DNA of 63,336 nt, counting the filler, from Lenisia limosa (Eukaryota; Protista; Breviatea): assembly GCA_001655205.1 (NCBI GenBank). It is 13 parts of 13 records of this genome, joined end to end, with 100 filler letters (N's around TTAATTAATTAA, not from the genome) between each part and the next. Parts side by side here need not be neighbours in the genome. Positions count along the whole stretch, not along the records: positions 1 to 12,190 come from LPNZ01007572.1; positions 12,291 to 16,514 come from LPNZ01001467.1; positions 16,615 to 19,779 come from LPNZ01001916.1; positions 19,880 to 22,666 come from LPNZ01006995.1; positions 22,767 to 34,254 come from LPNZ01005452.1; positions 34,355 to 35,873 come from LPNZ01010391.1; positions 35,974 to 39,025 come from LPNZ01003538.1; positions 39,126 to 41,161 come from LPNZ01002208.1; 5 more parts are not named here. One strand, given 5' to 3'. Made by a program: the position numbers and the translations under genes. Positions 1,444-57,439 of the stretch are shown here, in pieces (position 1 is the first letter of the stretch; each line of letters starts with the position of its first letter). The notes beneath the pieces are model-generated. The model saw only the letters and a list, made by a program, of their open reading frames with translations, searched no databases and was not told where the DNA came from.

Positions 1444-4400
1444 TCACCTCAGGATGAGCTGGTCGATCCACTTGGCCCAGTAAGAAGTGAACCACTTCAG
1501 GAGGTCTGCTCGTCGGCTGTCTGAAAGCGATGAGAAGAATATCGGCTTTTTTGAAAAAAAAAAAAAAAGAACACTATTCTATCCTTGGTTCACTCATCAG
1601 CCCCCTCGTTATTTATAAAATATGGGTTGAAATCCTGTTGTTTTGCTGTTGAAACCTGTCGATTTATTCCTTGGCGTCCCTATGATACACTGACCGCTAT
1701 AAGTCCCGACACGGATATTGAGCTTTGTCTTTAGTCAATCGTGTCATGACTTATCGCGATTAGTCTGATTATCAAATTTCAAATAGTTTAGAAATTTCAC
1801 AAAAATAATTGAAAAATTGAAATTTGAAATAGTGTGGTGTGTAGCAATCTTTTCATACCCTTCATCTCGGCGTAATGGATGCTGTTGAGACACAGTTTCT
1901 TAATAGAGGCCAGGTCCTAGGATGTCAGGAAATCAATTATCCCTAGGTATTCATTTGTTTTCCAAAAAAAAAAAAATCAGGTGAACTGGACAAAAAACAG
2001 GTCCTATAGTAGTGTCAAAGATAAAAAAAGTTCACCGGATCCCATCATCCGAATGTCCTTGGGAAATCCCATCGCATCCCCCCTCTCACCAGTTCCCAGC
2101 CGGTAATGGCCATATAAAAGTCGTAGGCCAGAGCATGCTCAGCGTAGTCCATAATCGGTGCATCGTCCGTGGCTATGACCACCGGAAGGCCTGGGGGAGG
2201 GGAGAAAAGTAAAATTGGAAAATTTATGAAACAAAAAAAAAAGAAGCCTAAAATCAACTCTGTTGGCAGACAACACACAAGGGTTGGTAACAACAAAACA
2301 AAGCCCAGGTCAGTCGCTTCTGCAGCACCGCATCCCATCACTCTCTTGAAATTGATATTTATACTTGGTTTTGCAGAAGCACCCCCCTACCCAGTTGGAG
2401 GTAGGCACGAGCGGGATGATTGCGAAGTTCAGGGGCATATTCCAAGGCCTGGGGGGGGGGGGGNNNNNNNNNNNNNNNNNNNNNNNNNNNNNNNNNNNNN
2501 NNNNNNNNNNNNNNNNNNNNNNNNNNNNNNNNNNNNNNNNNNNNNNNNNNNNNNNNNNNNNNNNNNNNNNNNNNAAACAAGCCTGGGGGGTAAATTGGAG
2601 AAAATAAATAATGAAACAATCAACTCTGTTGGCTGATAACACACGAGTAAACAACAAAACAAAAAAAAAAGCCCTAGAATTGGGGATATGGACAGTTTAG
2701 AAGCTTACTTGGTTGGAAAGAGAGCAGACTTCAAGGCAAATATCGTACTTCTTAATGAAGTCGCTGGCAACGGGAAGATACTGAAGGATTAAGTGGGAAT
2801 GGGAAGGTACTGTCAACACTGATAACCCTAAACAAACTTGTCTCTATACAACATCTACTAACATCCACACATCAGAGACACCTCACAGTGGGTTCAGAAG
2901 TATGGTAATTTGTTTATGGTATCCCTATATATTGATTCGTTTCCCCTAGATTTCTAATGTTTAGTATTTCTCTTGTTAAAAAAAAACACCATGATTACCA
3001 ACCTTAAACAGTTCATAGCCGTGGCCAATGCGCCGAGGGTGAAGAGGAAGAGTATCAAGCAGGTTGTGGTGGAGAGGCGTGCTGATGGGGTGAGGTTCAA
3101 AACTTCATGAGGAGGTGCAAAAAAATACAAAGCAAAAAAAAAAGAGCGGAGTGCCAGCAACAAAAAACCTCCCATTCTGAAAAGAATACAGAAATGAAAA
3201 ATAAAACACGATTTTATCGGAACCCACTCCCCACATAATGCTACGAAAACGCGAAGTTTATGGTGAATGACATACTTATGGTATCCCCAGGTTTAAATTA
3301 ATGTTTTCTCGTTCCTCAAAGAAGCCCCCACCAACCTAGTTTCGCCAGCATGCAGGTAGAGAGGGAGGTCGCTACCGGGTCCGTCACCAACAAGGAGAGG
3401 AAGGTAGTCAATGAGGCCGAGCGCACCGTCCGCGTCTTCTTCCCCCACAATATCGAAGCCAAGAATGAGCTGACGGGAGTAAACTCGGAAACGGATTATG
3501 AGAGAAAAGAAGTAATATCTGTTACGAAGACGCCACTAACAATAAAGCAAAAAGCAAGGTAAAGATGAAACAAAAAGGAAACTTCATAATGAACAAAAAG
3601 AAAGTTCACAATCTACGAACGAAAAGATATTGTAATAAAGCTGAAAATAAAGCTATATCCCCGAATAGTAGAATGAAGCTATTTCCTAGAATGATCCCCA
3701 TCACGCACCTCGGGGTGCTGGGACTTGAGAAGGTTGCACTCCTCCACGAAGACTCTCATGACGTCAAGAGTCAGCTTGCGGGGGGCAGCGCAGATCAGTC
3801 CAAGGCTGCAATGGTGAGAAGGTTGGCCACAAACTTTTTCTTTTCTTTTTTATTGTCAACAACAACCACCACACCCTATTCCTTGACCATGATTGTCAAT
3901 AATCACTCAAGTTGAGAAGAATTTTTTTTATTTTGTTGATATAAAAAAAAAAACACTTTTATCACTTTCAACAAAGTTGATTTTGGGATACTCACTAATT
4001 GTCCATTACCCCCCACGAGAACTCAGGGTAGGTCTGCTTGGCTCTGTTGACGGCCTCAATGAAGAAACTTGCTTCCTTGGCCCAAGTCAGGTATTCTCCG
4101 GCGTAGTAGTAGGAGCGACCGAAGACAACTGAGGGGGGGGGGGGNNNNNNNNNNNNNNNNNNNNNNNNNNNNNNNNNNNNNNNNNNNNNNNNNNNNNNNN
4201 NNNNNNNNNNNNNNNNNNNNNNNNNNNNNNNNNNNNNNNNNNNNNNNNNNNNNNNAAAAACAAAAAAAAAAGTCCAAACTCAACTCTGTTGGCTAAGCAT
4301 CATACGAGGGTTAAAAACAACAAAACAAAGCCCAGGCTAGTCGTATGAATGAAAAAACCCAACTTCAACATTAACTAAAAATCTGCGGGGGGAGGCAAAG

Positions 4401-6994
4401 GGAAGAAAAACGAAAGAAATGTCAAGCTGATTACCAGTATACATACCTCTCATTTCAAGTCGCATTACACCGTCCGCAGCAAAGTCGAGGAAAGCTTGGT
4501 GGTAATAGTCAATGTAGACTGGTTCGAAGGAGACAAGGCCTTGGATACGGCCGAAAGTGGCCTCGAAGGGCGTCCACATCCTGGAGGTAAACGATGGAAA
4601 TTTAGATGAAAAATACTAGGTAAAATTAAAATTTATGAAACAAAAAAAAAAAGCCCAAATCAACTCTGTTGGCTGTGAAACGATGGANNNNNNNNNNNNN
4701 NNNNNNNNNNNNNNNNNNNNNNNNNNNNNNNNNNNNNNNNNNNNNNNNNNNNNNNNNNNNNNNNNNNNNNCGGTTAAACCTTTGTGTGTGCGTGCGTGTG
4801 AAAATAAAATTTAGGTTCAAAAGACGCTTAAAAAAAAAACAACATTTGAGCCATCGAAATTGGATTAAATATTTGAGATACATTTTCGGTCCAAAAGACG
4901 AGTAAATTTTTGTGTTATAAAACTCATCCTGCGAATACCCATCATGCTTAGTAATAGGCTTACATGTTATTCGTGTTGTAAATGCCTATATGCTCATTAT
5001 GCGATCTTAGTACCATGCTTACTTGGTCTTTATGTTCATCATGTCCTCGTGTACCATGAAGCGGTCAGCAATAGCCCTGTCATAAGCCTCAACATCACGC
5101 GACGCCTCACTAAAATGGTTATCATCCTAAACAAAAGTTATCATAGGTTAGGAATACCACATGTGGAAAGGGATTTCTATTTTCTTCCATGTTTTGGAGA
5201 AGTTATCTCCGGGGTTTTCTTTGTGTACAGCTCAACCGCCGGATCTTTATATCATCTTAGTTTCAAGAAAGACTTTACTGCAAAAAAAAAAGGAGAAGAG
5301 AACAAAGGGCTGTGGATCTAAGGATGACGATGACCATCCCCCCAACCGCTCAGCACTAATCAGCACCCAGTCCTTAGGAATGGTCTGGTTGGCTTCGGGT
5401 TGATAGAAGATAACGGCACCTTCCGAGATTTTGGCTGGGAAGATAAGAAATGGACTGTCAAAAGATTGTTTCTAGAAATGAGTAATAAAACAAGGTTGTA
5501 TCTGACCGAAGCCGTCCACACATTATAGATAGATATCGATATAGAGGAGGAATAAAAACATAGACATGAGAAATAAAAACATAGAGATAAGAAATAACAA
5601 GGACCCAGAAATAAAGAAAGCCCCCCTCCAACAGGTCATGGGGGAGCCAATAAGGGACCCATCAGCAAGGGTCATGGACATCGGCTCTTCATAGGCAACT
5701 TCTAGGGTGGGGGNNNNNNNNNNNNNNNNNNNNNNNNNNNNNNNNNNNNNNNNNNNNNNNNNNNNNNNNNNNNNNNNNNNNNNNNNNNNNNNNNACCAGT
5801 GAGGCAGAAGCAATAATTGGTTCCAACTGGCTGTTGGCCAAGGATTTGATTTAACCAAATTAGTGTTTGTACCTTACTAATAACAATACTAATTTTCACT
5901 GTGGCCGCAGTGCCTCGATATCCATGATCAGAGTAGGCCTTCGTATCAGTCTAATTGAGAAAATTCGATATTTTCCAAGTGGTTTACGAGCCTGCGTGAA
6001 GCCCAACGACCATCCCTGCCTACTGCCGCGGAAAATGTAGCAATTTGGCAGATAAGTGGCAGTTTTGACAAGACGGAGGGCCGAGCCAGTAGAGAGGCTA
6101 CAGTATAAAAACCAAGAATTGATACAAGTCAAGAACTAATGTGCGTTAATGTCACCGGAAAAGATTGGGGATCATGATTTTGGGTCAGATAATTAGTTTG
6201 TCATTGCCAGGCCTTCACCTTGTTCCCAAAGACTGAATTTCTATCTCTTTTCGAACAGAAGTGAAGCGGAAGTCAAATACAAGGTATGATGTATGTATGT
6301 TTATTTTTTTATCATCTGATAAGCCAATGGCATTCACATTTACAACATAAGGCAAGTGACCATCACATTTAAAGGGACACGCACATCTGTCAAAGATATT
6401 ACTAATCTGTCGGATAGTGATTACAAATCGGTTCTTGCAGCAGCTTTCAATCAAACACGCCACAACCAAATCATCATCCATCTTGAGCTATATTACGCAC
6501 GGCCCACCTGTGAGTGTGTAAATTGGCGCCCTTGGGCATCAGTTTGATCAGGTCGATGAAGGAGCCGCTGTCGATGATGGACTTAGACTCGAAGAACGAG
6601 ATGGACGCGGGGGGTTTGGGACCAGTGCGCGCAAGTTCGAGGTCAAGAAGCTCTGGAGAGGCGGTCAATGAAGCAAGATAGTATTAGAAAATGCTAGAAA
6701 ATCAATCTCTCTAACCTCTGAACTTCTCATCAGCCTTCGTTTCAGTTTCACTGAGGACAACATCGCTTGCAAACCACTGAGACGAGAGCTAGAAAAGATT
6801 GAGTTTAGTAAGAGCGGATATTCTCCCTATAACAGCCACAGATAGATACTTGATTTCAACAATTAGCATATATGGAGGCTTACGTTTGAGTAGAGATTTG
6901 AGCGCTCAAAAAAGTAAGAGTGTTTGCCACGCTTGCACTCCGCGAATTGGGTAAATACAAGGAATAGCACCACCAAAAGGAAGCGTACACTCAT
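1444..6994 (-). CDS. ADA2: Secreted adenosine deaminase 2 / ADGF-like protein (about 15 exons)
   Basis: Signal peptide MSVRFLLVVLFLVFTQFAEC (ATG at 6994). Spliced exons give LMPKGANLHTH, MWTPFEATFGRIQGLVSFEPVYIDYYHQAFLDFAADGVMRLEMR, GFDIVGEED, LYLHAGET, RIGHG, LEVCSLSNQ, LRNHP, VIATDD, LAYDFY, DLASIKKLCLNSI, then TGA at 1446-1444. Motifs are collinear with the ADA2/CECR1 family. Confidence 0.92.
2191..2345 (-). repeat. Intronic family A (type copy), forming the intron 3' end
   Basis: Consensus GAGTGATGGGATGCGGTGCTGCAGAAGCGACTGRCCTGGGCTTTGTTTTGTTGTTAYCAACCC..GCCAACAGAGTTGATTTTRGGC(T)nGTTTCATAAATTTTCCAATTTTAC(C/T)nAG. Other copies near 640, 2575, 4256, 4583, 9215, 9920, 11445, 14005, 22600, 36918, 40633, 41822, 44003, 44510, 46280, 46450, 47303, 57040. 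Confidence 0.9.
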
Positions 6995-7226
6995 ATTTCC
7001 CCCTGAACAAAAAGTCATAGTTGTAAACAGTAATCAAAGTTTCTAATTGGCCAGGAAAACAAAATTAATATATCAAATACCGCCTGCTTTCGTGTTTAGT
7101 TAACCATAATTGGTGCAAAAATTTTGTTTATATACCTGCTTTTACATTAATTACATGTGTAGCTTATAGCGAAAAAAAAATTCAAAATGAAAGTATGAAA
7201 GTAAACCAGAACAGGAGCCTTTTATC

Positions 7227-10200
7227 ATGTCAGGGCTTGTTTCAGTAGTTGGATATGTCAACAAAAAAGAAAAAATGATCCAAGTGGACACGGAAAAACA
7301 GACTATTTCGTACCACACGTAAGCTTTTTCGGTCTCCTGAGATGGCTTTTGATAACTGTGATAAATTGTTTCACATTTCAGCCCCGGAAAGGCCAACAAA
7401 GAGGTTGTTAATATCTGTGATATTCGCAAGATCGAGAAGCCTGACGGGCTTTCTGATAAGGCTACCGACGAGGAGAAGAAGAAGGTTTGGAGCAAGAGAG
7501 CGGAAAGGGTCGGGAATGGGTTGCTGTGCTTGGGCGGGGGGAATTTTGGAGGTGCTTTGGTGAAATGATGTGATCGGTGGTTTCCATTTCAGCTCGGTAT
7601 TGTTTTTGTTGGGATGGTGCTTTGTTTGAGGGTTATCATATTATTTTCAGCTTTTCCAAGATGTGAATATGTGTTTTTATGGGAAGAAGAACATGGCTGA
7701 GCTCATTTGCTCTGTCTTAGCGTTCATGTTAAGCGAAATGACTTTGGTCCAGAGTGTTTGCGTCTTTTGTGAGGGGCGCTTATGGCTAGTTTTTTTGAGC
7801 TTATGTGAATTTTTGCTTCACTTTGGTCCCTTTATAATACAATGTGGGTGTAACATGCTTCAAATGTGGTCCCATATCCACTAGTGATATAAACTTTCGA
7901 GTTGAAATGGTCATGATGCACTGAGTGTTATCTATTGAAGAGTTGAAGAAGTGGATGTTATCGTCACATCTTCTATTTGCTTCTATTTTGTGTTCAAGAA
8001 ATTTCAGCATTTTTTTAAAAAGAAAACAAAAGATAGTGCCCAATTCAACATAAAACTATGCTGCTCTTAAAAATCAGACTTTTCATCTTGGTTGCTTTGG
8101 AATCACAAAGTGTTTACTTCAGAAACAGTTTATGGAAGTGTATTTATATCCCCTCTCCATATATCTTGTGAATTCACCCCAATCTGAAAAAGCCCGATAA
8201 AGTATCGAGATTAACCTATAGTGGCTCGAGGTCCTAAACTATGTCGTTAATTCGAATTATTGTCGTGAATTCAATTTTCTGTGACTGGCTCTTTTTCATG
8301 TTAAGGTCAACTTCACAACAATTTAACTCGTAAAAAAGGACATATGAATGCGGGCATAAACTGAAAAAAAATTGCGCGAGACCCTCCCCTGTGCCCCTCT
8401 TTCAAAAAAAAGTTTTTTTTCTTTTTCTTTTTCTTTTTCTTTGTTTCCCTTCATAAACAAATAAAGTGTGTATATCTCAGAAATCTATTACTGTTTTGAA
8501 GAGGAATCGCTGATTTGGCGACCGTAAATAATTAACGATATTAATTCGAATTAACGACATAATTTTGGACCTTGAGCATAGAGATATTCATTATTTTTCG
8601 GATTAATGTGAAGCTTTATTCCAATCATTTAACCCGCTTCAGAAAGAAAGCACCGTGCAGTCCGCAATGAAGAAGCAGAAGAAGTCCAAGCTCTTTATTT
8701 ACTTCAAAAGTGGGAAGGGGTTATTATAGACCAACTTTATCATCTTTTACTCCTTTCCGCAACCCAATTCCTTACACAAGGTCATACAACAAGATGTATA
8801 TATCGTATAGACACCACTGGAGTGCCAAATTGATCCACCAGCGCTATTGGACAACATCTCAGTTCGTCACACTAAAGCACATAGTATTCATACATCCTAC
8901 ACTGACCGGGATACCAACAACAGACCAGATAATTGACAATTAACATTTACGAACAAGAAGGTGCACCACCATCCCCATCCCTAGATTTCTAATATATATT
9001 ATTTCTCCTGTTCAAGACAAACTAACGCATCAGACGACGTGCAAGATCCACTCGATCTGAAGTTCAAAGGCAGCAACTGTGATGGTGATCTCCTGGCTGT
9101 TCTTGGCGCTGTGCGGTCATGCCAAATCCTGGTGCGCGCGGGGTAGGGTGTTTTGTTGTTTAAACCCTTGTGTGTTTTTGTTGCGTAAATGTTTCCCATT
9201 AACCCCCCCGCTGGAGTGATGGGATGCGGGCCTTGTTTGTTTTGTTATCAACCCTTGTGTATTGCTAACCAACAGAGTTGATTTTGGGCTTTTTGTTTCA
9301 GAAAAATTTCCACTTTCTCCCCTCCATCTCCCTCTTCCCCTAACCGAGCCAGAACGAGCCATCAACCCTGAAAATCCTCTGTGGTACATGGAACGCCGGA
9401 GACGCCCAGGGTCCCGATGACTTGAAGGAGTGGATCCAGCCCGGATATGACCTCTATGTTCTTGGTGCCCAGGTAAGAAAAAACAAAATATAATGAAAAC
9501 TACACACCAAATCGACGAGCTTTTTGAGACCAGAGGGAAACTAGGTGTGATGATTAAGGCTTCCTGCGGTCCCAAAAAAGACTGAATTTCTCGATAAATC
9601 CTCGATAAATATCGATATTTTATCAGTCTTTTTCGGACCGCACTGTGATGATCTATCAATTCAAAGAATTTTCGCAAATAATGACATTCGTGTGAAATTG
9701 AAATGATAGACATCCATTACATAGGAATTCGAATACGCCCAGCATGAATTTTCCTATTTTTCACTATTGCAGGAATGTGAATACAAGCCCCCTACAGGGG
9801 ACTGTGGACAGCATTGGTACGGAATCCTCCAGCAAAACATCGGGCCTGTGGGGGGGTAAAATGTCTTTGTGTGTGTGGTGAATTTTTTTTTTTTGTTGTT
9901 GTTTTTGGTGTGTTTGTTGGAGTGATGATAGGTGTTGCAGAAGCAACTGGCCTGGGCTTTGTTTTGTGTTCTCAACCCTCGTGTTTTGTCAGCCAACAGC
10001 GTTGTTTTTTTTTGTTTCACAAATTTTCCAATTTTACTCCCCCCTCCCCCCAGGACTACACAGTTGTCCGTTCTAAGTCCATGGGAGCAATTCGTATGCA
10101 CATTGCAATCAAGAAAGAGCTGTTCCCCCTGGTGTCAAATGTCCAGGTATGGGTCAAATGCCAACCATTTTTGGCAATCTTACAATATTTGGTTGAGGCC

Positions 10201-12055
10201 ACTTACCATAAGGCATCATCTTCTTTCACTTTCCATATTAGGCATATTCATTTACCATAAGGCATTTTCATCGATCCCTTACCAAATTAGGCATCTTCCG
10301 AGGCTACCGGCGTGGGCCGTGTTGTACATAACAAGGGTGGTGTTGCCGTGTCCTTCAAAGTATGTCGCTTTTGATAGAATCCAATAGTGGTTCTTCCAAT
10401 ATCTCATATGAGCGTGATGGTTTGGGCGGCTTCGGCCAGATACAACCCATTTTTATTCTCATCTCTACACACATTGGATTCTCGTTTTTGATGGGTGTTT
10501 CTTTTGTACAGAGTTTAACCGCTGGATCTCTTAGATCCTAGAATAGAGACTTTGTCTTTATGATGACTTTGCTGCAGATTCTCATCTATTCAGATTTGTG
10601 AAACATCCTTCCTCATCTCTTCAGATTTGTGAAACATCCTTCCTGTTTGTAAACAGTCATCTGGCTGCTCATCAAGAGAGAATCGACGACAGAAACCGTG
10701 ACTATTTCGAAATATTGAAGGTGGGATATTTTGAGATTTTACAGTTATGGGGGAATATACTATCATGTCTTGAAGCAGCTTCGCATATACTTGTTATTTT
10801 TCTCATTTCTATTCCGTGCCTCAGCGTGTGTTGGGGAGGCACACAAAAAGCTGTGTGTACAGAGTTATAAGGCAAGATTAGGTGAAAATCTATTATTCTA
10901 TAATCCAATATCTCTTATAAGCGTGATGGTGTAGACAGCTTCGGCCAGATACAACCTATTTTTCGTTTTTTTTTCAAAGCCTCACCAAACCAGGGCATCA
11001 AAATCGGCATCCCCGAGTACGAATGTCTCTCTCAGGTGGAGAGGGGAGGGTCTCTCTCAGGTGGAGAGGGGAGGGTCTCTCTCAGGTGGAGAGGGGAGGT
11101 TCTCTCTCAGGTGGAGAGGGGAGGGTGCATTTTGGCACTAAATACTGATTTTTGGAAGATGATTAAGAGCTAGATTGTACTCATTTGAAACTATCATGCA
11201 ATATTTCAACTATATATTCCAATTTGGCTAAGATTACAAGTCTCCCCCCCCCCCNNNNNNNNNNNNNNNNNNNNNNNNNNNNNNNNNNNNNNNNNNNNNN
11301 NNNNNNNNNNNNNNNNNNNNNNNNNNNNNNNNNNNNNNNNNNNNNNNNNNNNNNNNNNNNNNNNNNNNNNNNNNNNNNNNNNNNNNNNNNNNNNNNNNNN
11401 NNNNNNNNNNNNNNNNNNNNGTATCTCCATTCATAAACTGTATTCTACTGAAGCAACTGGACTGGGATTTGTTTATGTTGTTGTTTTTTTTACCCTTGCG
11501 TGTTTCCCAATTGTTTAGCCAGCAGAATTGATTTTTGGTCTTTTTTTTGTTTCATAAAATTTCTACTTTTACTCCCTCCCCTCTTATGATTCGCCTTGAC
11601 CCCCCAGGTCGACCATGCTTTCTGGATGGGCGATCTCAATTACAGAATTGTGGGGGGGGGGGTATTTTTGAACTGAGAAACTAATTAGAAATTTACTATG
11701 AGGAACTCACAAACTTACCATATTAGGAACTTACCAAATGAGGAACTTATAAACTTACCATATTAGGATATGTCACGTGACGACTGCCTCCAAAAGATCA
11801 ATGACAAGGGTAGGGGTGGAACAATTCCGGGAGGGTGAAAGAACTTATAGCAAAAGGTCTATATCTATCATAAGCCTATTACCAGCGTATACTTCAAATC
11901 ATCTCATTGATATTTCAGATTATGTCATTGATAGTTCAGATTATGGCGGACTAATGATTACTTCAGAATGGCATTCATTGATTTTTCAGATTACCTCGGC
12001 CTGATCGATTATGACCAGCTTGTCAAGGTCAAGTCTGATGACAAGGCTTTCATTG
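7227..12055 (+). CDS. Inositol polyphosphate 5-phosphatase with a probable N-terminal PH-like region; truncated by linker
   Basis: Exons encode ILCGTWNAG...YDLYVLGAQ|ECEY, EATGVGRVVHNKGGVAVSFK, SFLFVNSHLAAHQ, FWMGDLNYRI and YDQL, the type II 5-phosphatase motifs. Upstream exons 7227-7318 and 7382-7483 splice in frame (MSGLVSVVGYVNKKEKMIQVDTEKQTISYHTPGKANKEVVNICDIRKIEKP); their link to the catalytic part is inferred. Confidence 0.85.
8224..8577. mobile_element. About 355 bp non-autonomous TIR element
   Basis: Left end GCTCGAGGTCCTAAACTATGTCGTTAATTCGAATTA matches the reverse complement of the right end GCTCAAGGTCCAAAATTATGTCGTTAATTCGAATTA (36 bp, 3 mismatches). Flanks are ATAGTG / ATAGAG. Confidence 0.7.
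11026..11125 (+). repeat. 25 bp x4 tandem repeat spanning an exon/intron donor
   Basis: TCTCTCTCAG|GTGGAGAGGGGAGGG occurs four times head-to-tail. Confidence 0.95.
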
Positions 12056-12349: not shown

Positions 12350-14200
12350 CCTCAGTGGACTCATGGAACTGGAGTGCTTTCTCCCCAGTCAGTTCACTCG
12401 GTTTCTGACGAGGACGATGACCTTGCTGCATTCGGCGGTCAAGCCCAGTTCTCCGTTCATGACACAGGGTGGGATTCGCGGTTCACTTGGTTGTGTTATT
12501 AGGACACCGCGCAATTTATTGGGAAATTGTACCGAGAGCCCCATTTCAGACACTCTTTTCCCCCAAATGTTGTTATAGTGATTAATGGTTATTGTGGAGG
12601 CAAGACCAAAGAATTTGATGGGATATGAAATTGAGATGTTCTTTCATGAGATGATGGGTAAACTGCCGGTCTATGTATTTATTTTACTTTCTATATGCAA
12701 TCTGCAAGAATGCAATGTATCGGGCTCACAATCTCCAAAATTTCCTGTGCTTCTCTCTGTAATTTCCCAGGTTTGATGCTGAAGATGACCTAAAGCCCAA
12801 GTTCAAATCCCCCAATCAAGGTAGATCTCCTGGGTTTTGGCATTCCAATTCGTAAACATACGACTCAAAATAGTGCACATTCTCATATCTTTGCTCCAAC
12901 AGCTAGATTACACTTCCGGCTATTAAAAACACGCCATACGGAAAGAGCCATTCTGAATTTAACTCAGTTTTGAGAGGGGACTTGTTCCCATGTAGCATAA
13001 AATTTCAAATTTTGAGGGGTTTTTTGAGGTTTTTTTTGTTTGTTTTTTTGTTTCATAAAATATAACAATTCCCTTCCTTGTAGCATCATCACTGGGGGCT
13101 TCTACCCAGAGACGAGCTGTCCCTCCTTCCCCTGCGCAGACTAGGAATATTCCAAAAAGTTGGAGGACGATTTTATTTGACTCTTAGTAGTAAAATGGAA
13201 TATGTGGGGGGTAACAAAGTAATGCTCTGACAGATGCCATTCATACCATCACGTTTAAAAGGTAATAATACTTCTCATCATAAATCAGTCATAATTTTAA
13301 ATAAAAAAAAAATACATATTACTTTTTAAAAAGATACTGCTAATTATGAGCTTAAGTCCTCATTGGACTTCTTTTTTAATATGAAACAATGATTGGGTGA
13401 ATTAGTAGTACTATAATACCTCTTATAAGCGTGATGTTGTGGACGGCTTCGGCCAGATGCAACCTTATTTTTTATTTCTCATTGCTATATACACTTCTAT
13501 TACGAAGGCTAATCACTACGCATACCTATCTTCACTTTAATCAAGTGTGAAACAAATCACAGAAAGCAACTGACAGGCTCAGGCATGCACTCGCGTGTAC
13601 CTTCGGAAGCAGGCAGTTTCGTTTCCGACGTAGGCTCGGAGCCACCGGCAATTCCTCCGAAGGCCGAGTCAATTCTGGACCTGCCGCACTCCAAAGACCG
13701 ATCACTCAGTGTGGCTTCGGCCACTTCGCTGCCATCACCTCATCTTGGCCATCCGTGGGGGCCGGGGGGGGGGGNNNNNNNNNNNNNNNNNNNNNNNNNN
13801 NNNNNNNNNNNNNNNNNNNNNNNNNNNNNNNNNNNNNNNNNNNNNNNNNNNNNNNNNNNNNNNNNNNNNNNNNNNNNNGGGTTGATGCTCGTACTTGTGT
13901 GAGTAGAGTTTTCCATAGTAAAGGAGCTATGAGGTTGTTGTTTAGCTGGGGAGGGGAGGGGAAGATATTCTAATACTTAGGCCACACCCCCTTATGTGTT
14001 ACTTGCCAATAGAGTTGTTTTGGGCATTTTTTTTTTAATAAATTTTCCCAGGCCCCCAGCAACAGTTACAGACACACCTTCGAAAAAAGAGGCGCGAAAG
14101 CTGGAGAAGGACCGTAAAAGACAGGAGAAGAAGGAGGCCAAGGAGGCGAAGAAGACAATTAAACTCCAGAAGAAGTCCAAGCGCAAGGGTGTTGTCGAAT
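12350..14200 (+). CDS. Hypothetical Pro/Ser-rich then Lys-rich protein fragment (about 5 exons)
   Basis: AG/GT-bounded open exons near 12350, 12772, 13084, 13578 and 14051 (e.g. PPATVTDTPSKKEARKLEKDRKRQEKKEAK). No family recognised. Confidence 0.5.
13385..13490 (+). repeat. Intronic family C (up to about 200 bp) with terminal hairpin
   Basis: Consensus ..GGCAAATGATTGGGTGAA..TCTCTTATAAGCGTGATG(G/T)TGTGGACGGCTTCGGCCAGATACAACCTTGTTTTATTTCTCATTGCTA. Copies near 90, 440, 5480, 10400, 10835, 16310, 17715, 18950, 32075, 33125, 45275, 51305, 59255, 59530, 62400-62640. Confidence 0.88.
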
Positions 14201-14579: not shown

Positions 14580-15178
14580 TTCAACCAAATACAAAAGCGA
14601 AATGGTTGCTCAGCTATTATCGATGACATTTTTAAGTCCTTGTGAATCGATTTGGGAACAGAACTAATATTGTATGTAGTTTACAAAAGAATATTGTAGA
14701 ACGGTCATAGCTGAAGCAGCAAATGGGCTGCGTGGATCCAAGTGTCCAAATATGATACATGGAGTTGACTGAAGGAGGCTCCGCAGTTGATGTGAGAAAG
14801 GAAATGGAAACGGTCAACGACAAGCAAGTGAAGGCACAGGAGAAGATAAGGATCGTGAATATGGAGGGTCATGGCTAAGTTACATGCATTGTCGTAAACT
14901 ATTACCGATATATCTGTATTGTAAGAAAAAATAAGGTCCAAGAACTGACAATTGCGATCTAAACCAACATACTGTCCATTGCAAATCTCTCTTGAACCCA
15001 TTGCGAATCTCTCTTGGGCCCATTGAGTCATCACTGCGGTCGACTCTGTGACCGTGAAGATCTTGGAGGCGATGACGTTACCGTAGTTGCACATTACAAC
15101 CAGGACCTGCTTCATTGAGCCTTTGTAGCCGCCTTCAACTTCATCGTTGTCACTGGTGCGCTGGTCTTCTACCATCAC
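14580..15178 (-). mobile_element. KDZ (Kyakuja-Dileera-Zisupton)-type transposase-like coding fragment
   Basis: Translation has VLVVMCNYGNVIASKIFTVTES, VIVYDNACNL and VVDRFHFLSHINC, matching the KDZ/HMGXB3-type pattern C.HG...ES, YDxAC, DxFH..H..C. A possible downstream SSIIAEQ (catalytic E-like) lies at 14606-14630. In-frame stop just upstream of 15178; no TIRs seen. Confidence 0.65.
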
Positions 15179-15849
15179 CGCGAAAGCCCATCAGGCAGCC
15201 GAGCCGCAACGGCCCGGTACGTCCAATGATCAGAAATGTTAATCAAAGCGAAGAGGGAAAACAAAATACACATAGTCGAAATTAATCCCCTGATTTAGAG
15301 AAGCTTGGAAACAAGATCCTGGTATGAGACGTGGGCAATTACTCCGACAACTCTTGAATTGTTTACTCCAACACCTAAGGCAATTGTGTCCCTATGCCTA
15401 TGCCTACCCTTCCTTGGCGTCTCCTATCCCCTTAATCTTCATCCATTCTTTTTATCTTTCTTGCCTGTTTTTCATCTCCCATCTTTAATTCCTTCGAATC
15501 TTCTTAGACATCTTCCATTTTTCAATCCTCTTTGCCTTCATTTAATCACCATTTTTCGTCTTATGTTTATCGACTTTCACTTTTCCCTTTTCTTCTCTTC
15601 TTCCTTGGGTGCATTCATCGACTCTCTCAAATAGAATTAAAAATCCAAAGAGATCAAAAAAACGTAACTCCTCCTTTTTTGAAAAGCGTTTGTGTACCCT
15701 CCCACCTTTTGATGATACACAATGATACATAATATCATATAATATACAGTATTAGTAAACAGGTATATTTTTTGGTACAAAATTTTTCTTTAATAAACAG
15801 TACTGGTTGTCCACTTTATTCGCTTTCTTTTCTATTCCTCACTCCACAG

Positions 15850-44500: not shown

Positions 44501-46270
44501 CTGAATCTGCGGGGGGAGGGGGGAGTAAAACGAAGAATTTTGATAAAGAAAAATTGGAGAATTAATGAAACAAAAAAAAAACGCCCAAGAATGGAAAATT
44601 TATGGGGAAAAAAAAGAAGACCAAAATCAACTCTGTTGACTAGAATGGCAAAAAGGACAATGAAAAAACCAAATCATGACCATTTGTAGATAAGCAGCAT
44701 TCCCGTCCGCCAGCCCCCTACTAAAGCATTGGTAAAAGCGTAGTTCCGTACACTGCAGAACAGCAGCGGACGAAGACTGAAGATAATCGCACGCCAACTG
44801 CGAAGGAGCTCGGTAGCGTCTTTTCTGGGGGAGAGGGAGAGAGAGTAAAACATATTTTCTGGTTTTTTTTAGAACAAGAATGTAAACGTATCAATTAATT
44901 GAGGAAGAAAAATACAAATAGTCCCTATTCTGTATAGGGGAGAGTAAAACATCTTTCCTGGGGATAGGGGTGAAATGAAGCTTCGGGAGGAATATTGGCG
45001 TAAAGGTACTTCAAAAAAATAACAGGGGGAGCGGTATGAAAAATGTCACAAAGGCTTTCTCAACATCATTCCAACCACCTACTCTGGAAATGCCCGAGAA
45101 AGCAGGCTTGTCATTGTGTCCATGTGAACCCCCCCACAATTGCTGGAAATGTGAAAGTCAGTTAATAGCGTGATACACAGCTTCCTGCCAATATACAATA
45201 CATCGGGATACTGTTCCAAGATTTGATTTTCAATATGTTCTTGCTTTTATACATGTATTATGTACATATAAAATAGAGAGGAGAAATAAAACATGGTTGT
45301 ATCTGACCGAAGCCGTCCACACCACATAGAGTTGTAAGATGCAACAAACACCACCCCACCTGTCGAGAAGTATGGCAATTCCAATGTCGAATACTTCCGA
45401 GTCGTTTTGAGCTCCTAAGAGATTATTGCGATAATGGTGATTGTAGTAGTATCCCTACCCTCATTTTATACCGTCCCTCCCATACAATTATATCGCACTC
45501 CATATTACCCTCCCCCCCAATATACAGTGACCGGGATAAGTCTTGACCGTTTTTCCATGGGAAATCACATAGCAAATCGGTCAAGACTTATCCCATTCAC
45601 TGTACATATAAGTGTATATCCCCCCCNNNNNNNNNNNNNNNNNNNNNNNNNNNNNNNNNNNNNNNNNNNNNNNNNNNNNNNNNNNNNNNNNNNNNNNNNN
45701 NNNNNNNNNNNNNNNNNNNNNNNNNNNNNNNNNNNNNNNNNNNNNNNNNNNNNNNNNNNNNNNNNNNNNNNNNNNNNNNNNNNNNNNNNNNNNNTCAGTT
45801 TGCTGGGAAGCCCCTAAAAGAGGTCAAGAGTAGGGCTTCGAAAAATACTGAATTTATTGATAAATCCTCGAAAATTATCGATATTGTGTCGGGTTTCTTC
45901 AGACCAGAAGAGGCAAAAGTTAAGGTGGGGGAGTATATAACGGGTATAACATTGGGGGTACCAACCGCCTAAAAGGCCAATATTTATCGAGGATTTATCA
46001 AAACAACTCAGTCATTTTGGTGCCGAAATGAAGCCCATCTTATACCTTGGGTTTCTCAAAACAGACCGTTAAAATATCGATAATCTTCGAAACAGAATTA
46101 TAGAGAAATTCAGTCTTTTTTCGAACCGAAGTGAATCCCTACTTCTACCCCTCCCCCCACTCCCACCAGTAAAGCGGTGATCTCTTGTGATCTAGGGCGC
46201 AAGCTGGCAAGAACAGCCGCGATATGGACGTATAAGGGTGACGGTGTGGGGTTGGCTTGGAGCACAGCTC
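41530..46270 (-). CDS. Hypothetical multi-exon protein fragment
   Basis: More than 10 short open exons bounded by C-run AG acceptors and GT donors (e.g. IQSYMENVVPALTQEKFYTRPEAIMKTF; RIHPDIPVATKEFDYCSTDDYK). No confident family. Confidence 0.5.
45525..45602. mobile_element. Tc1/mariner-type MITE family E (75-79 bp)
   Basis: TA-CAGTGACCGGGATAAGTCTTGACCG...CGGTCAAGACTTATCCCATTCACTG-TA. Copies at 17506-17584, 20888-20962 and 50859-50936. CAGTG termini with TA target duplication are Tc1-like. Confidence 0.88.
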
Positions 46271-47208
46271 GGGTGTGGGGGGAAACTGCGGGGGGGGGGT
46301 AAAATTGGAAAATTGATGAAAAAAAGAGGGGGACAATATGGGCTCCACCNNNNNNNNNNNNNNNNNNNNNNNNNNNNNNNNNNNNNNNNNNNNTTAATTA
46401 ATTAANNNNNNNNNNNNNNNNNNNNNNNNNNNNNNNNNNNNNNNNNNNNAAAAAAAAAAAAAAAAAAGCCCAGGCCAGTCACGTCTGTAGCACTGCATCC
46501 CAGCACTCCAGTGTACTTGAAAATGGAAATTTATGATACAAAAAGGCCAAAATAAAAAGAAGGAAATTTCGATGACAAATAGTGTTAAATACTGTTTTTG
46601 GGTCGGGAAACAAAGAGAGAAGCAAAACCCTGAGATAACACAAAGTAACAATCAGCTACGAAGCAGTGAGAGGGGAGAGGGGTGATAGTAGGNNNNNNNN
46701 NNNNNNNNNNNNNNNNNNNNNNNNNNNNNNNNNNNNNNNNNNNNNNNNNNNNNNNNNNNNNNNNNNNNNNNNNNNNNNNNNNNNNNNNNNNNNNNNNNNN
46801 NNNNNNNNNNNNNNNNNNNNNNNNNNNNNNNNNNNNNNNNNNNGAAAATGAAAAAAAATAAAAAAAAATAAATAAAATGTAAAAAAATAAATAAAATGTA
46901 AAAAAATAAAAGCAAATGAAATAGGTCTTGGAGGTGGGGAGTAAACCCCCCTTTAAGGGTTGAGTACAAAACTAAGAATTATGATGGTCAACAATCAAAC
47001 TGTCACTGATAGAATACTCGAATCATAGTATCCAAGGCCTCAAGCTAGCCTGTAGTTTTTATCAATTTATATGCGAGCATTACCGCAACAAGTAAACCCT
47101 AAACAAAGCGAAACACCTAGTTATGATCACCAAATAACCAATTCATGAGCTATAACAAAGTAGCCAGCCCAAGAAAAGAGCTGAACAGCAAGAAAAAAAA
47201 AAACGAAC

Positions 47209-48955
47209 CTTAGCAAATGAGAACGACTTGACTGTTACGACCAGCCCGGACTTAGATTCATCCTCGGATATGACGGGTGGCTTTATGTCGGGTGTAGGCG
47301 TAGAGGCTAGGGAGAGGGGCTGGTAAAAAAAACCTCGAGTGAGGGGAAAGCAGCAAAGTAAAAAAAGGACTGTTGCTTCCGCAGTATCGCATCCTGCCAC
47401 TCCAATGTATACGTTTATAAACAACATTGACAACAACCAACAAGAAGATTAGTCATAAAAGCACTGGAATTGCTCTTACAAAGACTATAAACACACACAT
47501 TCACCTAATAGCTAAATCTGTGAACTTTACTCTTCACTTCAGAGAGAAAAGGACCTACTATCGATTTTCATCAAGATTCTATCAAGAAATTCAGTCTTTT
47601 AAAACTCATTTCATGTTCGTACCCGATTGGAATGTTATCAAAACATTTGCCACCCCCATTCCTCCAACCAGGCTCGGGGTTTTCTGCAAGTAAATGACGT
47701 TTGAGAGACACGAGGGACTGTACATGTGACACCGGCGGCGGCGATTCGGGAGGGGGGGAGGGCGACTTTGGTTCGACCTTGCTGTTTTGGGGTGAGGGGA
47801 TAGATGCATAGATTGAGACAATCGTTGAAATTTAAAGAACGCATAACAAAAGACCTCTTTGTTCAAAGTCTATAGCATGAAGAGTAGCCCTCTCCCTTGT
47901 TGAACTCCACGAAGACCCCCTGTTCAAAGCAATGCCGATCCCCCCGACATTTCCGTTGCTGACGTCTCGAGCCATCGATGTTTCATGGACCTCACTTCAG
48001 TGGGCTCGAACTTTGGCTCGTGTTTGAACAGGACTTCGGGCTTGGTTTCAACTGTTTTCTTGGCTTTAGGGGCTTCCTTTGCCTTCGGCCGGGGCTGTGG
48101 CTCAGCAACAGCTTTACTGGGCTTCGGACCACGCTTCTTCACCTCCTTGTCTTCTAGAGATGTCAACCTCTGGGCTTGGAAAAAAAAAGTTATCTTATGT
48201 TTTTTCTGCTGAAATTCATTCATTTGCATACGTTTAACCACAGAAGGGGTCTTTTTGGGCGGTGGAACGGATTGTTCATTCTTTTCCATCTGTTCAAATT
48301 GTTTCATCAGAAGTTGAATTTTCCTTTCTTCTCTACTAAGCTTCTTTTCCGGCTCAGAAGAAGAGAATGGCATCACCTACGAAAAGAGGTCAAAAAAGAA
48401 GACCCTCAAAAGCCCCTCAAAGTAACATTTACTGACTATAAAACACAAAACGCCAGCTTACAGGAGGAGGCTCGATCTTTTTACGTTTTTCTTTTGGTTT
48501 TTTCTTAATTTCAGGTTTTTGTTGCTTCTTAGCATCTTCTTCTTTCCTAAAAAAAGCATTACAAAGTCCTCAAGCCCGATTAACTCAAAAAAAGAAAGAA
48601 AGAAAACACCAGCTAACATGATATCGGTGCTTCTCTGAACAGTTTCATCACGGTGCTTAAGACGACACTGCATAACAGTGTCATAGCGAGGATCAGTCGG
48701 TGTTGGAGGCAAGGGAAGAATACTTGTACGAACCCAAAAGGACTCAGGGTCACATAAATCACATAGATATTCTTCAGGAAGAGCTCCTTCAATGCCGACA
48801 CAACCGCTATGCTGCCAGACATTGCAAGAGTCACAACAGATCATCATTCCACGGTCAGCCATGTCGCCGCATGGGCACCTAATATCACCTTCTGCTTCCA
48901 CATCCTTGGAAGAAGGGTTTTCATCCTTTGGTAAGGAAGATCCAGCTTCAGACAT
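47209..48955 (-). CDS. PHD-finger protein of KMT2E(MLL5)/SETD5/Set3 type
   Basis: N-terminal PHD IRCPCGDMADRGMMICCDSCNVWQHSGCVGI...YLCDLC, then LSREERKIQLLMKQFEQMEK resembling the KMT2E/SETD5 REERKM..I..F..LEK motif, then Pro/Lys-rich exons. Confidence 0.7.
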
Positions 48956-50025: not shown

Positions 50026-53000
50026 AGTCTCCCTGGCCCCCCTCCCGGCCCTCCACCCAACTTCCAAGGAGCAGATCGCCGAGATCGTCTCGACGAGCCC
50101 CCCCGCAACGCATACCAGCGCAACGACCGGGAAGACTTCCGCCGAGGACGCGATCGAGAGCCGCGCCGGGATGGTCGTTATCGCCGCGATCGTGACTGGG
50201 ACCGCCATGAGCCAGATCAGCAGCAGTACCATCAGCAGTACCAGCAACGAGAGGTCTTTTCTCCGTCACCCCCGCCGCCGGATCTCAAAATTGGTATGCC
50301 CCCCCCTCCTCTCTTCTTCTTATTACCACTTTTTTATCGCCTTTCCCCTTATCTTCTTTGGATTGTACTTCTTCGATCAATATCATTGTGTTGTTTGGTA
50401 ACTGTCAATAAATATCCATATTTCATATAGTGGAACCTAAATGAAGTCTGAATTAAGGGAAAGGGATGCAGATTATTATCAATTTTGAATGTCAAGATCC
50501 TGAGATCTGGATCTTATGCTCTAGATCAAATTGAGGCTCGTGACAGAATCCGAATTTCCGATCTCCCATCCTACTCCACAGAAGAGATGGTTTCCCAGGT
50601 GTTCTGTCAGTTCAAACCCATCAAGTCCCTTGTACTGCTCAAGGATGAAAACGGGGTAAAGGGGGTATGTGTAATATTCCTCTTGTTCCCGCCAAGAAAT
50701 ACATGTAATATATTATGATATCATATGTAGTTCCTTCCTTTCAATCGTTCATCCATCTGTCATTCTTGGACCATTATCCCTTCAGGCATGCCTTGGGAAT
50801 GCCGTTGTCACCTTCATGAGCGAATTTGTGGGTTGAGGTCATAAAAGGTGGACGTATACAGTGATCAGGATAAGTCTTGACCGATTTGCTATGTGATTTC
50901 GCAAGGAAAATCGGTCAAGTCTTATCCCGGTCAATATACATGTAATTATGAAAAATTTCCCCGTGAAAGGGCCCTGCATTTTACCAGAGTGTTACTGAAA
51001 AACAATAGCCACCGATATGACAGTGTAGGACGGACGAACGGTTCTGCATCACCATCGAAAACGCCCTATTGAGTTCGGAGGAATTCCTCTGACGCTCCAA
51101 TATGCCAGGATTAAGGGCAAGGCTGAGAGGGTGGGCTCATCTTTTGGGGCATGACACTAGACTATTAACATTATTAATGTACAAATAATTACATTCATCA
51201 TTCACATTATTGATTATTGTCATTTTTATTTTTTATAACGTCATTTACAGTAACAACGGTACGGTCTAGCGATAAATATAATTTGATAAACATATTATTT
51301 TTTTTACTATATGGACTGTTTGGCCAGATACAACCTTGTTTTATTTCTCATCTCTTTTTACGCAAGCCTTTGCCTTATAAAAAGAATATTGGGAAAGGAT
51401 ATTGGGATATTCAGAAAGGATATTTAGAAAGAGTGTTTAGAAGGAGTATTTTTAAGGGATCTTTTTACGGGATATTGCCACTAACCGCCGCAGCCGAGAC
51501 GACGTGAGGCTGAGGCAATTGGATTCCAGTCAAGACGCTCACAGGTGGGTTTGGGGGTGGGGTCGTACTTGCGTTTATTTTTGATAAAATATACGAACGA
51601 GATCGAACAAGAAACCGCACTGTTTTTAAAAAAACTGGTCAAAGAAGCTTTTAATTATCCTTATTCTGCTTCTTGTTTTTTTCACACAAATTGGATTACT
51701 GCTGTGGAGTTATAAGTGTGAATGCATATTATATAATAATGAGATACCTCTCTCATTGACTCAAAAAACTGCAGTGGAGTTATAAGTGTGAATGCATATT
51801 ATATAATAATGAGATACCTTTCTCATTGACTCAAAAAACTGCTGGCTTTAGAGTCTCAGAAGCAGTCGAGCTTACCCTCACCCTAAATTGTCCGTTCGAT
51901 CCCTCCATCTATAGAGGCAAATAACCTTCGTATTTTAGGTAGTCGAAATGGCAGAAGTCCACCAAGATCAAGTAAAAGCCTATGAGAATGCCATGAAAAC
52001 CTGGCAGAACCATTATCAACAGGTGGGGTGGTACAATATGAACGACACTATTATTATTATCTAGAGTTTCAAGTCGAGCTTTCACACAAATATCGATATT
52101 TTTTAAAGATATTTTTTAAGGATTTGTCGAATTTATATCCATTCTTTCACTGTCAGTAAGCCCTCTCACCATCTCAGCAAGCTCCAGTTCCCGTGCCGCC
52201 CGAAGGTCCGGCCACGCATGTTGACTACCCATCCCACCTCCACGAACCTGACCAACCTCCGTAAGCCTATATGCCTTGTGTTCTAAACCATCGATATGAC
52301 TTTAGTGTAATTGATTGTCCTTTTTGGGACTTCTTTTTCGAGTTACGGTTAAGTTGCTTCTGATTCATTTAAAACCCCTTTACTATTGGTTGTATTACTT
52401 AGTTTTAAGAATTGAGGGAATTGTTTTTATTTTTTTATTATCAACATCTCTAATTAACAGGATGATGCAGTTGGCTTCGGCTGATACTACTACTGTTATT
52501 GTTTTCCATTTCGAGACCCTGTTAATGATATTTTCAGAGCCCCTCTTCCCGAAGAAACAAGACCCCCCTCACCGTGAGGTTGATCCCAATGCTTCCCTTT
52601 TCTTGCGAATGCTTTGAGGAGGTTCCTTATTTTATGGGGAAGTATCACTGTTCCCCTGATTTTGTCAGATTGTTTTTTTTTTGGGGGGGGCAAGATTTTT
52701 GTTTTCAAAGCCCTCATGCGTTCAGAGAGCCGGAGAACGAAGCATCAATGAAGGGTGGATGGCAGAGTGTTCCTGGTATGCAGGTTGTGTTGAATGTTTC
52801 ACTTGAGTCCGGATAAGTCTGGTACATTTTCAGGAATTTGTCGGATTGTTTACTTTTCCCTTTGGAATCATCCAAAAATGATATCATATCCATGCTTTCT
52901 TCGAAGAATACGGATATTATCTATTTTCGTGCTCCAAAAGGTAGTTTGGCAATAAATCTCGATGTTTTTGAACCGTTGATCTCAGATCCTGACCACTCAG

Positions 53001-54846: not shown

Positions 54847-54886
<40 letters not shown>

Positions 54887-56129: not shown

Positions 56130-56956
56130 TGAATGGGCTTGATGTTCGGCGGTGAAGGCGGGGCAAAATCAATGTTCGGGTCGAGGGGAGGTTGCTGAAC
56201 GGGGGGTCAGAAAAAAGAAAACAAGATTGAGAGTGAAAATCGCGTGTGTCCAATATGTACCGGGTGACCATTTTATTTCTCGATAACCCCTTGATAATTA
56301 TCGATAATATATAATTTTTGTGGACCGGAGTAAAGCCCAACTTACATGGCTTTGAGGAGGGGATGGCGCATAATTCTGGAAGGAATGCTGGAAAATAAGA
56401 ACGAAATACTAATGGAAAAAGGAGATTTATGTATTTGAATGCCAACACACACACCAGCACGTCAGATTAAACAAAAGAAATTCCACTATTAACAATTCTG
56501 TTGAGAGTATAAGTATGCCCCATCCTTACACTGTTATTTGAGGATTCTTCGTTGCCTGAAGGGCTTTCATGACTTTCATACTTAAATGGTGATGGAAAAA
56601 GATGGAACCTGTAATTAACCATATCATATGAATTGAGCTAAAATTGAACTCATAATGGGCCAATATCCATTTCGCTCAATTGAACTCATAATGCACCAAT
56701 ATCCAGTATGTCTTGCAAAGATTCCCATCCAGTTGTCAAGTTACCTCCATCTTCATCAACCCCCCCCCCCAACCTGGTATGCTGGCAAGTCAAAGCCATC
56801 GTCACCCTCGTTTTCAATACCTGGACTCTCCATTTGATCCCCGGGTGCCAGGTGGCGGATATGTCCTCCGTTTCTGTTGTCCAACTCGTTTGAGGAATAG
56901 CGCTGCGGTGGCAGGGCGTCAGTTTCCGTTGGCGCGTGACCGCCAAAAAGCACCTG
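56130..56956 (-). CDS. Hypothetical low-complexity protein C-terminal exons
   Basis: VLFGGHAPTETDALPPQRYSSNELDNRNGG...DDGFDLPAYQ follows an A/D-family acceptor; final block QPPLDPNIDFAPPSPPNIKPIQW*. Confidence 0.4.
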
Positions 56957-57439
56957 AGGGTGGGAAGTGAAACGAAGGATATTTCGATGAAGTATATTGG
57001 CGTCAAGCTGGTGAGCCTAATATCAACTTTAGGCAAGAAAAAACACAAGAGTGTAGACAAAACAACAAAGTCCAGGTCAGCCGCTTCTGCAGCACCGCAT
57101 CCCATTTCTACCTTGTTGAGGTCGATGTTTGAGAGCCTTGATTCAAGCGGTGTGCGTTTGACNNNNNNNNNNNNNNNNNNNNNNNNNNNNNNNNNNNNNN
57201 NNNNNNTTAATTAATTAANNNNNNNNNNNNNNNNNNNNNNNNNNNNNNNNNNNNNNNNNNNNGGGGGGGGGGGGGGGAGTCAGGGTGCTGATAAGAGGTC
57301 TTATGTTAAGAATGTTTGGACTTCTCTGTGTTCTGCGATAGAGTCCGAGTAAAGTCAGCTTTGTTGCCCTAATAATGACCAAGTTTGAAGAGTTCCTATT
57401 CCCAGTAGAGCTAACAGTATGACATTTACCCCACATTAG

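Follow-up and report, generated by a model that had tools for sequence, protein, structure and literature searches.

Introners, the closest described system, are defined by similarity that extends, at the 5' as well as at the 3' end of the intron, to within about 10 intronic nucleotides (nt) of the boundary, as worded in the accessible part of PMC9860276, and the screens designed for them discard repeats inside pre-existing introns (PMC9860276; PMC12130899, both available in part). Single-orientation Introner families that carry the 3' splice site have been described in dinoflagellates, according to the accessible sections of the Introner literature (PMC9860276, PMC12130899, 10.1101/2020.10.14.339549). 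The present analysis concerns a repeat with related traits, named A/D after its two families A and D, which lies in introns of Lenisia limosa. This organism is a breviate, and breviates form a deep branch near animals and fungi. All results rest on one gappy window, i.e. the whole stretch of 63,336 nt that was analysed. A first-pass annotation of this window had proposed that A/D created the introns in the manner of Introners, or supplies their branch point and acceptor. The repeat pattern itself is genuine, and neither chance nor the ordinary behaviour of miniature inverted-repeat transposable elements (MITEs) explains it; it appears rather probable that A/D took over the ends of pre-existing introns secondarily instead of creating them.

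As far as the available portions of the literature go, Introners and A/D are alike in being short non-coding repeats in unrelated genes, present in one orientation, with a terminal 3' splice signal and clean splicing (PMC9860276; PMC12130899; 10.1101/2020.10.14.339549). Introners, however, reach both intron boundaries, whereas A/D reaches only the 3' boundary and has neither a junction repeat nor inverted termini. In its action A/D resembles one half of an Introner, the half that provides the 3' signal, yet it is not an Introner by definition. MITEs, represented in the window by families B and E, share with A/D a short, high-copy, non-coding and intronic nature. Nevertheless, B and E have terminal inverted repeats (TIRs; p=0.001) and lie away from acceptors, and B folds with z=-5.7, whereas A/D lacks inverted termini and structure. 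Short interspersed element (SINE)-like elements move by target-primed reverse transcription. A/D resembles SINEs in its simple 3' tail, its frequent 5' truncation, its stacking on earlier tails and an orientation that would be set via target microhomology, but its tail consists of a C-run plus a branch word, no tRNA, 7SL or 5S head was found in it, and target duplications are mostly not seen. Intronic elements of mammals avoid acceptors, where A/D concentrates (PMC3088655, in its accessible part). A further parallel is spliceosome-linked mobility of intron RNA, as discussed for fungal Introner-like elements (PMC9860276, available in part) and for intron circles (PMC10996645, available in part), since an RNA route would fit the strict sense orientation, the head-to-tail junctions and the lack of inverted repeats. 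Models of this type place whole introns into exons, whereas A/D lands in intron ends, and where its units adjoin head to tail, the AG-GT join that a complete intron circle would leave is missing.

The literature on introns, Introners, repeats and this lineage, with subscription papers mostly outside the search, contained no report of repeats in L. limosa introns; within the same limit, the literature on introns, Introners and repeats contained no element anchored at acceptors of existing introns. In the accessible part of the 2022 Introner survey supplement, L. limosa occurs once, in a row of an assembly table and apparently without gene annotation (PMC9860276), and it was therefore likely never screened for Introners. 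It was not found in 12 of the 14 supplementary files of PMC12130899, a source available in part. The most fitting place for A/D is among the elements that colonise introns, as a novel variant.

Copies, orientation and anchoring of the A/D repeat

The window contains 4568 N and 12 artificial spacers of 100 nt, and many of the gaps adjoin G or C runs. Two exons in it, belonging to genes for DCAF7 and for a C2-domain inositol 5-phosphatase, are 100% identical to the transcript-derived proteins P0002 and P0008, respectively, both of which carry L. limosa as source label; an ADA2 relative is the third gene. The window lacks residues 327-551 of P0008 as well as residues 1-248 of P0002, and the spacers therefore join non-contiguous pieces. 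Exact matches to P0008 and P0002 fixed 13 introns. In ADA2, contig 10 of RNA run X2 joins position 4128 to 4447, showing that intron 4129-4446 is spliced, and 11 further introns were assigned which together yield a single open frame. For the remaining genes, models came from a small predictor whose training set was DCAF7, the 5-phosphatase and ADA2, with introns without A/D as the training set for acceptors. The working set comprises 71 introns, namely 14 A/D carriers and 57 controls without A/D. Since 40 of the 57 control introns and 6 of the 14 carrier introns are predicted or hand-assigned only, motif counts on them are partly circular. Five carrier introns, four fixed by P0008 or P0002 and one by the RNA contig, are correctly spliced and leave the protein unchanged.

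In a self-BLAST, A/D forms a single component of 27 regions between positions 649 and 57105, which bears out the claim of the first-pass annotation that a repeat family occupies introns of unrelated genes. The threshold of E<=1e-4 leaves 17 matches for A and 11 for D; 5 of them have no assigned host strand. The claimed sense orientation also holds: all 23 strand-assigned matches, corresponding to 18 of 18 loci, are sense to the host (binomial p=8e-6), compared with 7 sense and 4 antisense loci for family C (Fisher p=0.014) and one sense locus out of four for family F. The host strand of these 18 loci was assigned via a transcript-derived protein, an RNA join or homology in 7 cases and via the gene model in 11, two of them by a weak margin. 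Weak low-complexity matches were excluded, both antisense C-rich ones at 42280-42301 (E=0.02) and 43572-43630 (E=0.001, overlapping another family) and T-rich ones at 20325, 28641, 30808, 40226 and 40305.

Anchoring at the acceptor was observed for most copies, though not for all. Among 20 A/D loci read by hand, 14 stop no more than 7 nt from an AG, an N gap separates the copy from the C-run-AG in 3, 2 stop 12 and 24 nt short of the acceptor, and one (22585-22666) ends at least 65 nt short of it. All ten copies of families B, C and E in modelled introns sit 23-216 nt from the acceptor. The A copies are mutually 50-82% identical (65 pairs), and carrier introns are longer than controls, with medians of 278 and 176 nt. 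That the repeat is an artefact of low complexity or of assembly can be given next to no probability and is already largely refuted: T-rich and C-rich blocks do occur and N gaps stand beside many copies, yet the complex cores match between different loci at E down to 1e-19, and transcript-derived proteins confirm introns.

Two rough figures suggest an A/D copy number of the order of 10^4. The density of 0.46 regions per kb of window, multiplied by 49.0 Mb, gives about 2 x 10^4, where 49.0 Mb is the figure for an assembly of L. limosa in the PMC9860276 supplement, with the meaning of the column inferred. At place 2310 the depths of run X1 contigs add up to 463,341, whereas unique contigs reach 24-38; the summed depth is not a copy number. 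The GCN1-like gene (57263-63336), previously listed as a carrier, has no A/D match and is therefore unusable as a test gene.

Intron ends, splice signals and element classes

Intron creation by A/D is not supported by a comparison of the two ends of carrier introns. The distances from donor to element in the 14 introns are 6, 16, 33, 34, 47, 71, 80, 97, 103, 187, 226, 234, 342 and 409 nt (5 include N gaps); in one intron, which is predicted only and has a weak donor, the element thus begins no more than 10 nt from the donor, and in the other 13 the distance is 16-409 nt. A weak D-like match (E=0.02) begins about 9 nt past the donor of intron 4129-4446. Over the first 60 nt of carriers, 3 of 91 pairs score above the control 99th percentile, and over the last 60 nt 37 of 91 do so. 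Introners are expected to yield groups of four or more introns that resemble each other at their 5' as well as their 3' ends; no such group was found within the window. The target-site duplications at exon junctions that many, though not all, Introner families leave were likewise not seen, as junction repeats are no longer in carriers (mean 2.07 nt, n=14) than in the 57 controls (1.53 nt; p=0.58).

The shared tail has a wider distribution than had been assumed. A yTnAy word with its A 7-11 nt from the intron end is present in 41 of 57 introns without A/D (shuffles: mean 9.6, maximum 16), including 15 of 17 in the better-supported tier, and 13 of 57 have at least three C before the AG in addition. 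L. limosa appears to use a compact branch-point-plus-AG signal, of which the A/D tail is one instance. The TTTTAC-C-run-AG terminus, cited in the first-pass annotation as common to A and D, is indeed present, but a tail of this type is generic in this genome and therefore unusable for uniting the two families. Comparison of their 5' blocks gave p=0.002, 0.04 and 0.10 in three pairs, while the 3' blocks gave p=0.10 and the middles p=0.74, so that the kinship of A and D is weakly supported; chimeras (at 4581, 44507 and 56954) and stacks of the two occur. The suggestion that the elements supply branch point and acceptor agrees with most copies, in which homology continues through the TTTAC word into the C-run preceding the AG. 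It does not extend to the transcript-fixed introns 9132-9352 and 11036-11607, which have a separate branch-like word downstream of the element. In carriers, the spacing of the branch word is often stretched by the C-run to 7-19 nt (p=0.06). Control introns (n=57) typically show a branch-like word 8-10 nt before the end and no long pyrimidine tract, with G-runs after many donors.

Several classes of element were considered and rejected. TIRs were not detected in three A/D copies (p=0.89-0.98), as opposed to the control families B and E, and folding gave z values of +0.13 to +1.60 in 7 of 7 copies and 0 consensus pairs in 12 copies. A structured, snoRNA-like intronic RNA was discarded for lack of an Rfam family and of a fold. 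Helitrons typically terminate in CTRR at their 3' side, with a GC hairpin in subterminal position; CTAG closes only two A/D copies (18237 and ~4614), and there is no folding signal. An inverted-repeat element spanning donor to acceptor was rejected as well, given an inverted terminus after the donor in one of 71 introns, and so was pairing between a 5' G-run and the 3' C-run (rho -0.06 in 57 controls; G content of carriers not higher, p=0.15). The A-core pattern had 0 matches in metagenome contigs, and a similar pattern had 0 in viral contigs.

Probable take-over of existing intron ends

A/D is probably a non-autonomous mobile element. Its copies would insert in sense orientation where introns already in place end in the branch-point/C-run/AG signal, and they are predicted to take over, in most cases, this context of branch point and acceptor while leaving the mRNA unchanged. 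That such a secondary take-over went together with targeted, C-run-primed copying is plausible, with the doubts slightly the heavier. In this scheme, an A/D copy, most likely RNA and possibly the tail of an excised intron, would end in the same TnAC-C-run word as the host acceptors, and its tail would pair with the strand opposite an acceptor, at a nick within the G-run there. Copying from the 3' end of A/D, most simply by reverse transcription with an enzyme supplied in trans, would result in sense landing and frequent 5' truncation. The new copy would push the older branch word and C-run upstream, while the target would contribute the AG and in some cases its former branch word, and selection would then retain the A/D tail as splicing comes to depend on it.

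Several observations touch on this scheme. A run of at least five C lies within 14 nt in 5 of 26 visible 5' flanks, compared with 0.35% of control intron windows, and two of these five runs are tails of other A/D copies. The bases between the C-run and the exon vary (AG, TAG, GTAG, GCAG and TCAG), and X1 contains head-to-tail joints of the A/D unit, with or without a C-rich linker, which reuse position 2343. Together with the abutment of a C-run on an A copy at 44035, these features fit insertion into the C-run of an acceptor with the AG left by the target. Across intron 9848-10053, the encoded 5-phosphatase aligns colinearly with human SHIP2, and the 71-nt spacer of this intron is therefore not a lost or captured exon.

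Spread of acceptor ends by templated repair or ectopic gene conversion via the branch/C-run word, with A/D as merely the most amplified tail and no dedicated mobility, would also account for the sense orientation, the 3' anchoring, the chimeras listed above and the scarcity of target duplications, and many assembly gaps do adjoin G or C runs. Such a process, however, could copy any tail, yet control introns have no common tails (median score equal to background); several A/D copies moreover share a defined 5' boundary, and the X1 joints reuse 2343. This alternative is regarded as quite unlikely, though it counts, like a decayed Introner, as a real rival. The orientation bias could in principle have arisen by random insertion followed by selection, if A/D landed anywhere and only sense copies at an acceptor survived. 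The sense strand bears a strong acceptor, so that mid-intron sense copies could be harmful, and mammals do show a bias in orientation close to exons (PMC3088655, in the part available). On the other hand, near-total loss of antisense copies would be needed. The antisense strand of A/D is no more donor-like than the sense strand, best donor scores being equal between the two (14 copies, Wilcoxon p=0.80), and harmful antisense splice signals were thus rejected as the cause of the orientation; purging of antisense copies therefore has no obvious cause. Skipped internal C-run-AG copies are tolerated (2578 and ~4382), and mammalian elements are depleted near exons, with the closest ones favouring donors, the reverse of the pattern seen here (PMC3088655, again in its accessible part). 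Selection on random insertions is hence very improbable as an explanation. As the two strands have equal donor scores and skipped internal acceptors are tolerated, insertion itself was probably directed, through a targeting mechanism that is inferred.

The take-over of pre-existing ends has to be weighed against a number of points that speak against it or against parts of it. Host strands at 11 of 18 loci and most acceptors rest on the gene model built for this analysis. No A/D copy matched Rfam at E<=1, and no tRNA-, 7SL-, 5S- or snRNA-like head was seen. Target duplication at p<0.02 was found at one of 20 A/D acceptors (DCAF7), while 7 of 15 control introns show a similar pattern, and it was rejected as a general feature of insertion. 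The C-run is absent from 21 of the 26 visible 5' flanks. An intact simple-sequence 3' tail with variable 5' truncation is present, but it is confounded by selection on the acceptor, and 5' truncation is equally expected from selection on the 3' end. Neither a partner reverse transcriptase or other enzyme nor an empty-site allele was found in the window material. Furthermore, the 5' GT of A/D is weakly donor-like, at the 11th-30th percentile of real donors, and in the predicted intron 56954-57111 the element takes up the whole length. Of the intron-bearing orthologs that cover the DCAF7 carrier position (D293, phase 1), 8 of 8 lack an intron there. Finally, in the ADA2 comparison described below, an exact human boundary at c.1239/1240 and the alignment of that segment are in part presumed, and structure-database searches with the short exons of this segment gave no match.

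The age of the carrier introns bears directly on the expectation that their positions would be absent from orthologs. Introns are present in 10 of 25 metagenome DCAF7 loci, and 8 of these cover both window positions. The same eight orthologs in which the carrier position is empty also lack an intron at the non-carrier neighbour (V270, phase 2), and new positions are therefore not specific to A/D. In human ADA2, positions c.1217 (E406) and c.1240 (V414) are 604 bases apart in the genome and 23 in the cDNA, with an intron of 581 nt (PMC10110724, in its accessible part), which places a human intron within that stretch. The carrier intron 2449-2708 of the window is in phase 0, eight codons past the start of the matching E. 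This suggests, without being proof, that it is probably at or next to the human ADA2 intron and hence ancient.

These results also bear on the possibility that A/D is a decayed Introner, once a whole GT-to-AG unit whose donor was displaced, or whose 5' part was replaced, by later insertions or local duplications. The donor-like opening word, the predicted intron at 56954-57111, where the element runs from 6 nt past the donor to the AG, and the empty DCAF7 position in 8 of 8 orthologs are what such decay would predict, as are the age of the copies implied by their divergence, the greater length of carriers and the frequency of local duplication. Yet intact 5' ends lie 47-80 nt inside introns whose donors have nothing in common, junction repeats are missing, the DCAF7 neighbour without A/D is absent from the same eight orthologs, and one carrier intron in ADA2 is probably ancient. 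Decay from an Introner is thus considered unlikely.

If secondary take-over is true, A/D would exemplify a form of concealment within genes that has not been described for mobile elements. Mobile elements are normally excluded from intron ends, and the concentration of A/D there would imply either targeting tied to splice signals or acceptor turnover on a large scale. From A/D it would follow that splice sites can be rewritten by an element while intron positions stay as they are, and that common intron tails are no proof of intron gain. It is put forward tentatively, as a claim more doubtful than probable, that a splice-site-targeting element, forming a class beside Introners, rewrote the acceptors of some ten thousand existing introns, with the branch-point/C-run/AG word serving as both landing pad and disguise. 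In that case splicing of a large share of the transcriptome would depend on element sequence, and splice-site replacers of this type, as distinct from intron makers, would be discarded by the very design of current Introner screens.

Individual copies and neighbouring features

In the ADA2 relative, all copies are on the minus strand. A full-length A copy (2191-2343) forms the 3' end of intron 2191-2390 and starts 47 nt after the donor. Intron 2449-2708, which follows an S-N-Q motif, contains a 5'-truncated A copy with its own C-run-AG (2578-2674), then an N gap and a C-run-AG at 2449. The RNA-supported intron 4129-4446 holds an A copy (4256-4343) with an N gap before the terminal C-run, as well as a weak D-like tail with a skipped C-run-AG (~4382-4437). 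At 4581-4680, the 3' part of an A copy is followed by a D tail that closes at the acceptor of intron 4581-5022. In the ADA2-like gene (1450-7000, minus strand), 14 or more introns interrupt a coding sequence of about 1.5 kb, a very high density, and the stretch 5127-6507 was left out of its model.

On the plus strand, 5-phosphatase intron 9132-9352 contains two stacked A copies (9148-9340), with the separate branch-like word and an AG 12 nt past the C-run. A full-length A copy (9919-10053) closes at the transcript-fixed acceptor of intron 9848-10053, and another A copy (11445-11583) stops 24 nt short of the acceptor of intron 11036-11607, which is also transcript-fixed. Eight consecutive introns of this gene (9132-11766) are all in phase 0. 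In DCAF7, on the minus strand, a deleted A copy (40637-40709) closes at the transcript-fixed acceptor of intron 40637-40806, with a 14-nt near-copy of the exon start just 5' of it.

Predicted acceptors close further copies. On the plus strand these are a 5'-truncated A copy (13989-14051), a D copy (18045-18237) and an A copy in a membrane-protein gene (36918-37044); on the minus strand they are an A copy (41827-41920), the 3' part of a D copy (43309-43405) and a stack of two A 3' pieces with a D tail (44507-44641). A D copy at 19631-19779 (plus strand) and a D tail at 41262-41309 (minus strand) are interrupted by assembly spacers. The exceptional A copy at 22585-22666 (minus strand), at least 65 nt from any acceptor, has no C-run. 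The near full-length D copy at 35441-35695 (minus strand), whose host strand is not independently assigned, has an internal gap, a C-run before it and a C-run-AG at its end, and a 5'-truncated D piece at 38983-39021 (plus strand) ends in AG right after a branch-like word and C-run. The remaining copies are on the minus strand. A D tail at 44003-44124 has its C-run abutting the 5' end of an A copy (44035) with no AG between them, followed by a gap and a C-run-AG at 43772. An A tail at 46286-46325 closes in C-run-GCAG, whereas a D piece, an A tail remnant and an A 5' part at 46454-46584 are interrupted by an assembly spacer, again with no independently assigned host strand. A diverged A 5' part lies at 47366-47402. 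Finally, an A 5' part joined to a D tail (56954-57105) starts 6 nt after a putative donor at 57111, which is predicted and weak; it is the sole such case. At least seven A/D loci belong to one multi-exon gene (41262-46349, minus strand), and a search with one of its exons yielded a single bacterial repeat protein, which fails to match the gene, and no true relative.

Other repeats share the window with A/D. Family B is a palindromic, MITE-like element of about 100 nt with TIRs and the strong fold noted above, present in 16 regions including 9547-9642, 17014-17134 and 38270-38388, and family E is a second MITE-like element with long inverted termini (17495-17595, 20882-20968, 45520-45613 and 50854-50945). 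Family C is an intronic repeat of 60-140 nt, found in both orientations and sometimes in tandem (5467-5529, 10391-10473, 13388-13493, 32069-32155, 62382-62641 and others), and family F is a small AT-rich intronic repeat, antisense at three of four sites (2902-2987, 8979-9022, 43570-43616 and 61543-61574). A frame of 161 amino acids at 14708-15190 (minus strand) resembles a KDZ (Kyakuja-Dileera-Zisupton) transposase by language-model features (0.94-0.96) and has no Pfam match; no link between this fragment and A/D was shown.

Pfam, run on 150 of 432 candidate frames, named Sec7 only. A long, repetitive, lysine/glutamate-rich coding exon with units of about 190 nt occupies 23000-26400 (minus strand), and a tRNA gene lies at 40153-40225 (plus strand), its anticodon being CTT as read from the sequence. 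Of 15 introns without A/D, 7 contain near-copies of the acceptor and exon start, located 9-80 nt upstream from the acceptor in use (10594-10624, 2781-2811, 1917-2005, 9772, 10290, 11989 and 6653). Donors are tandemly copied too (11036-11125), which suggests that splice sites are constantly renewed by local duplication.

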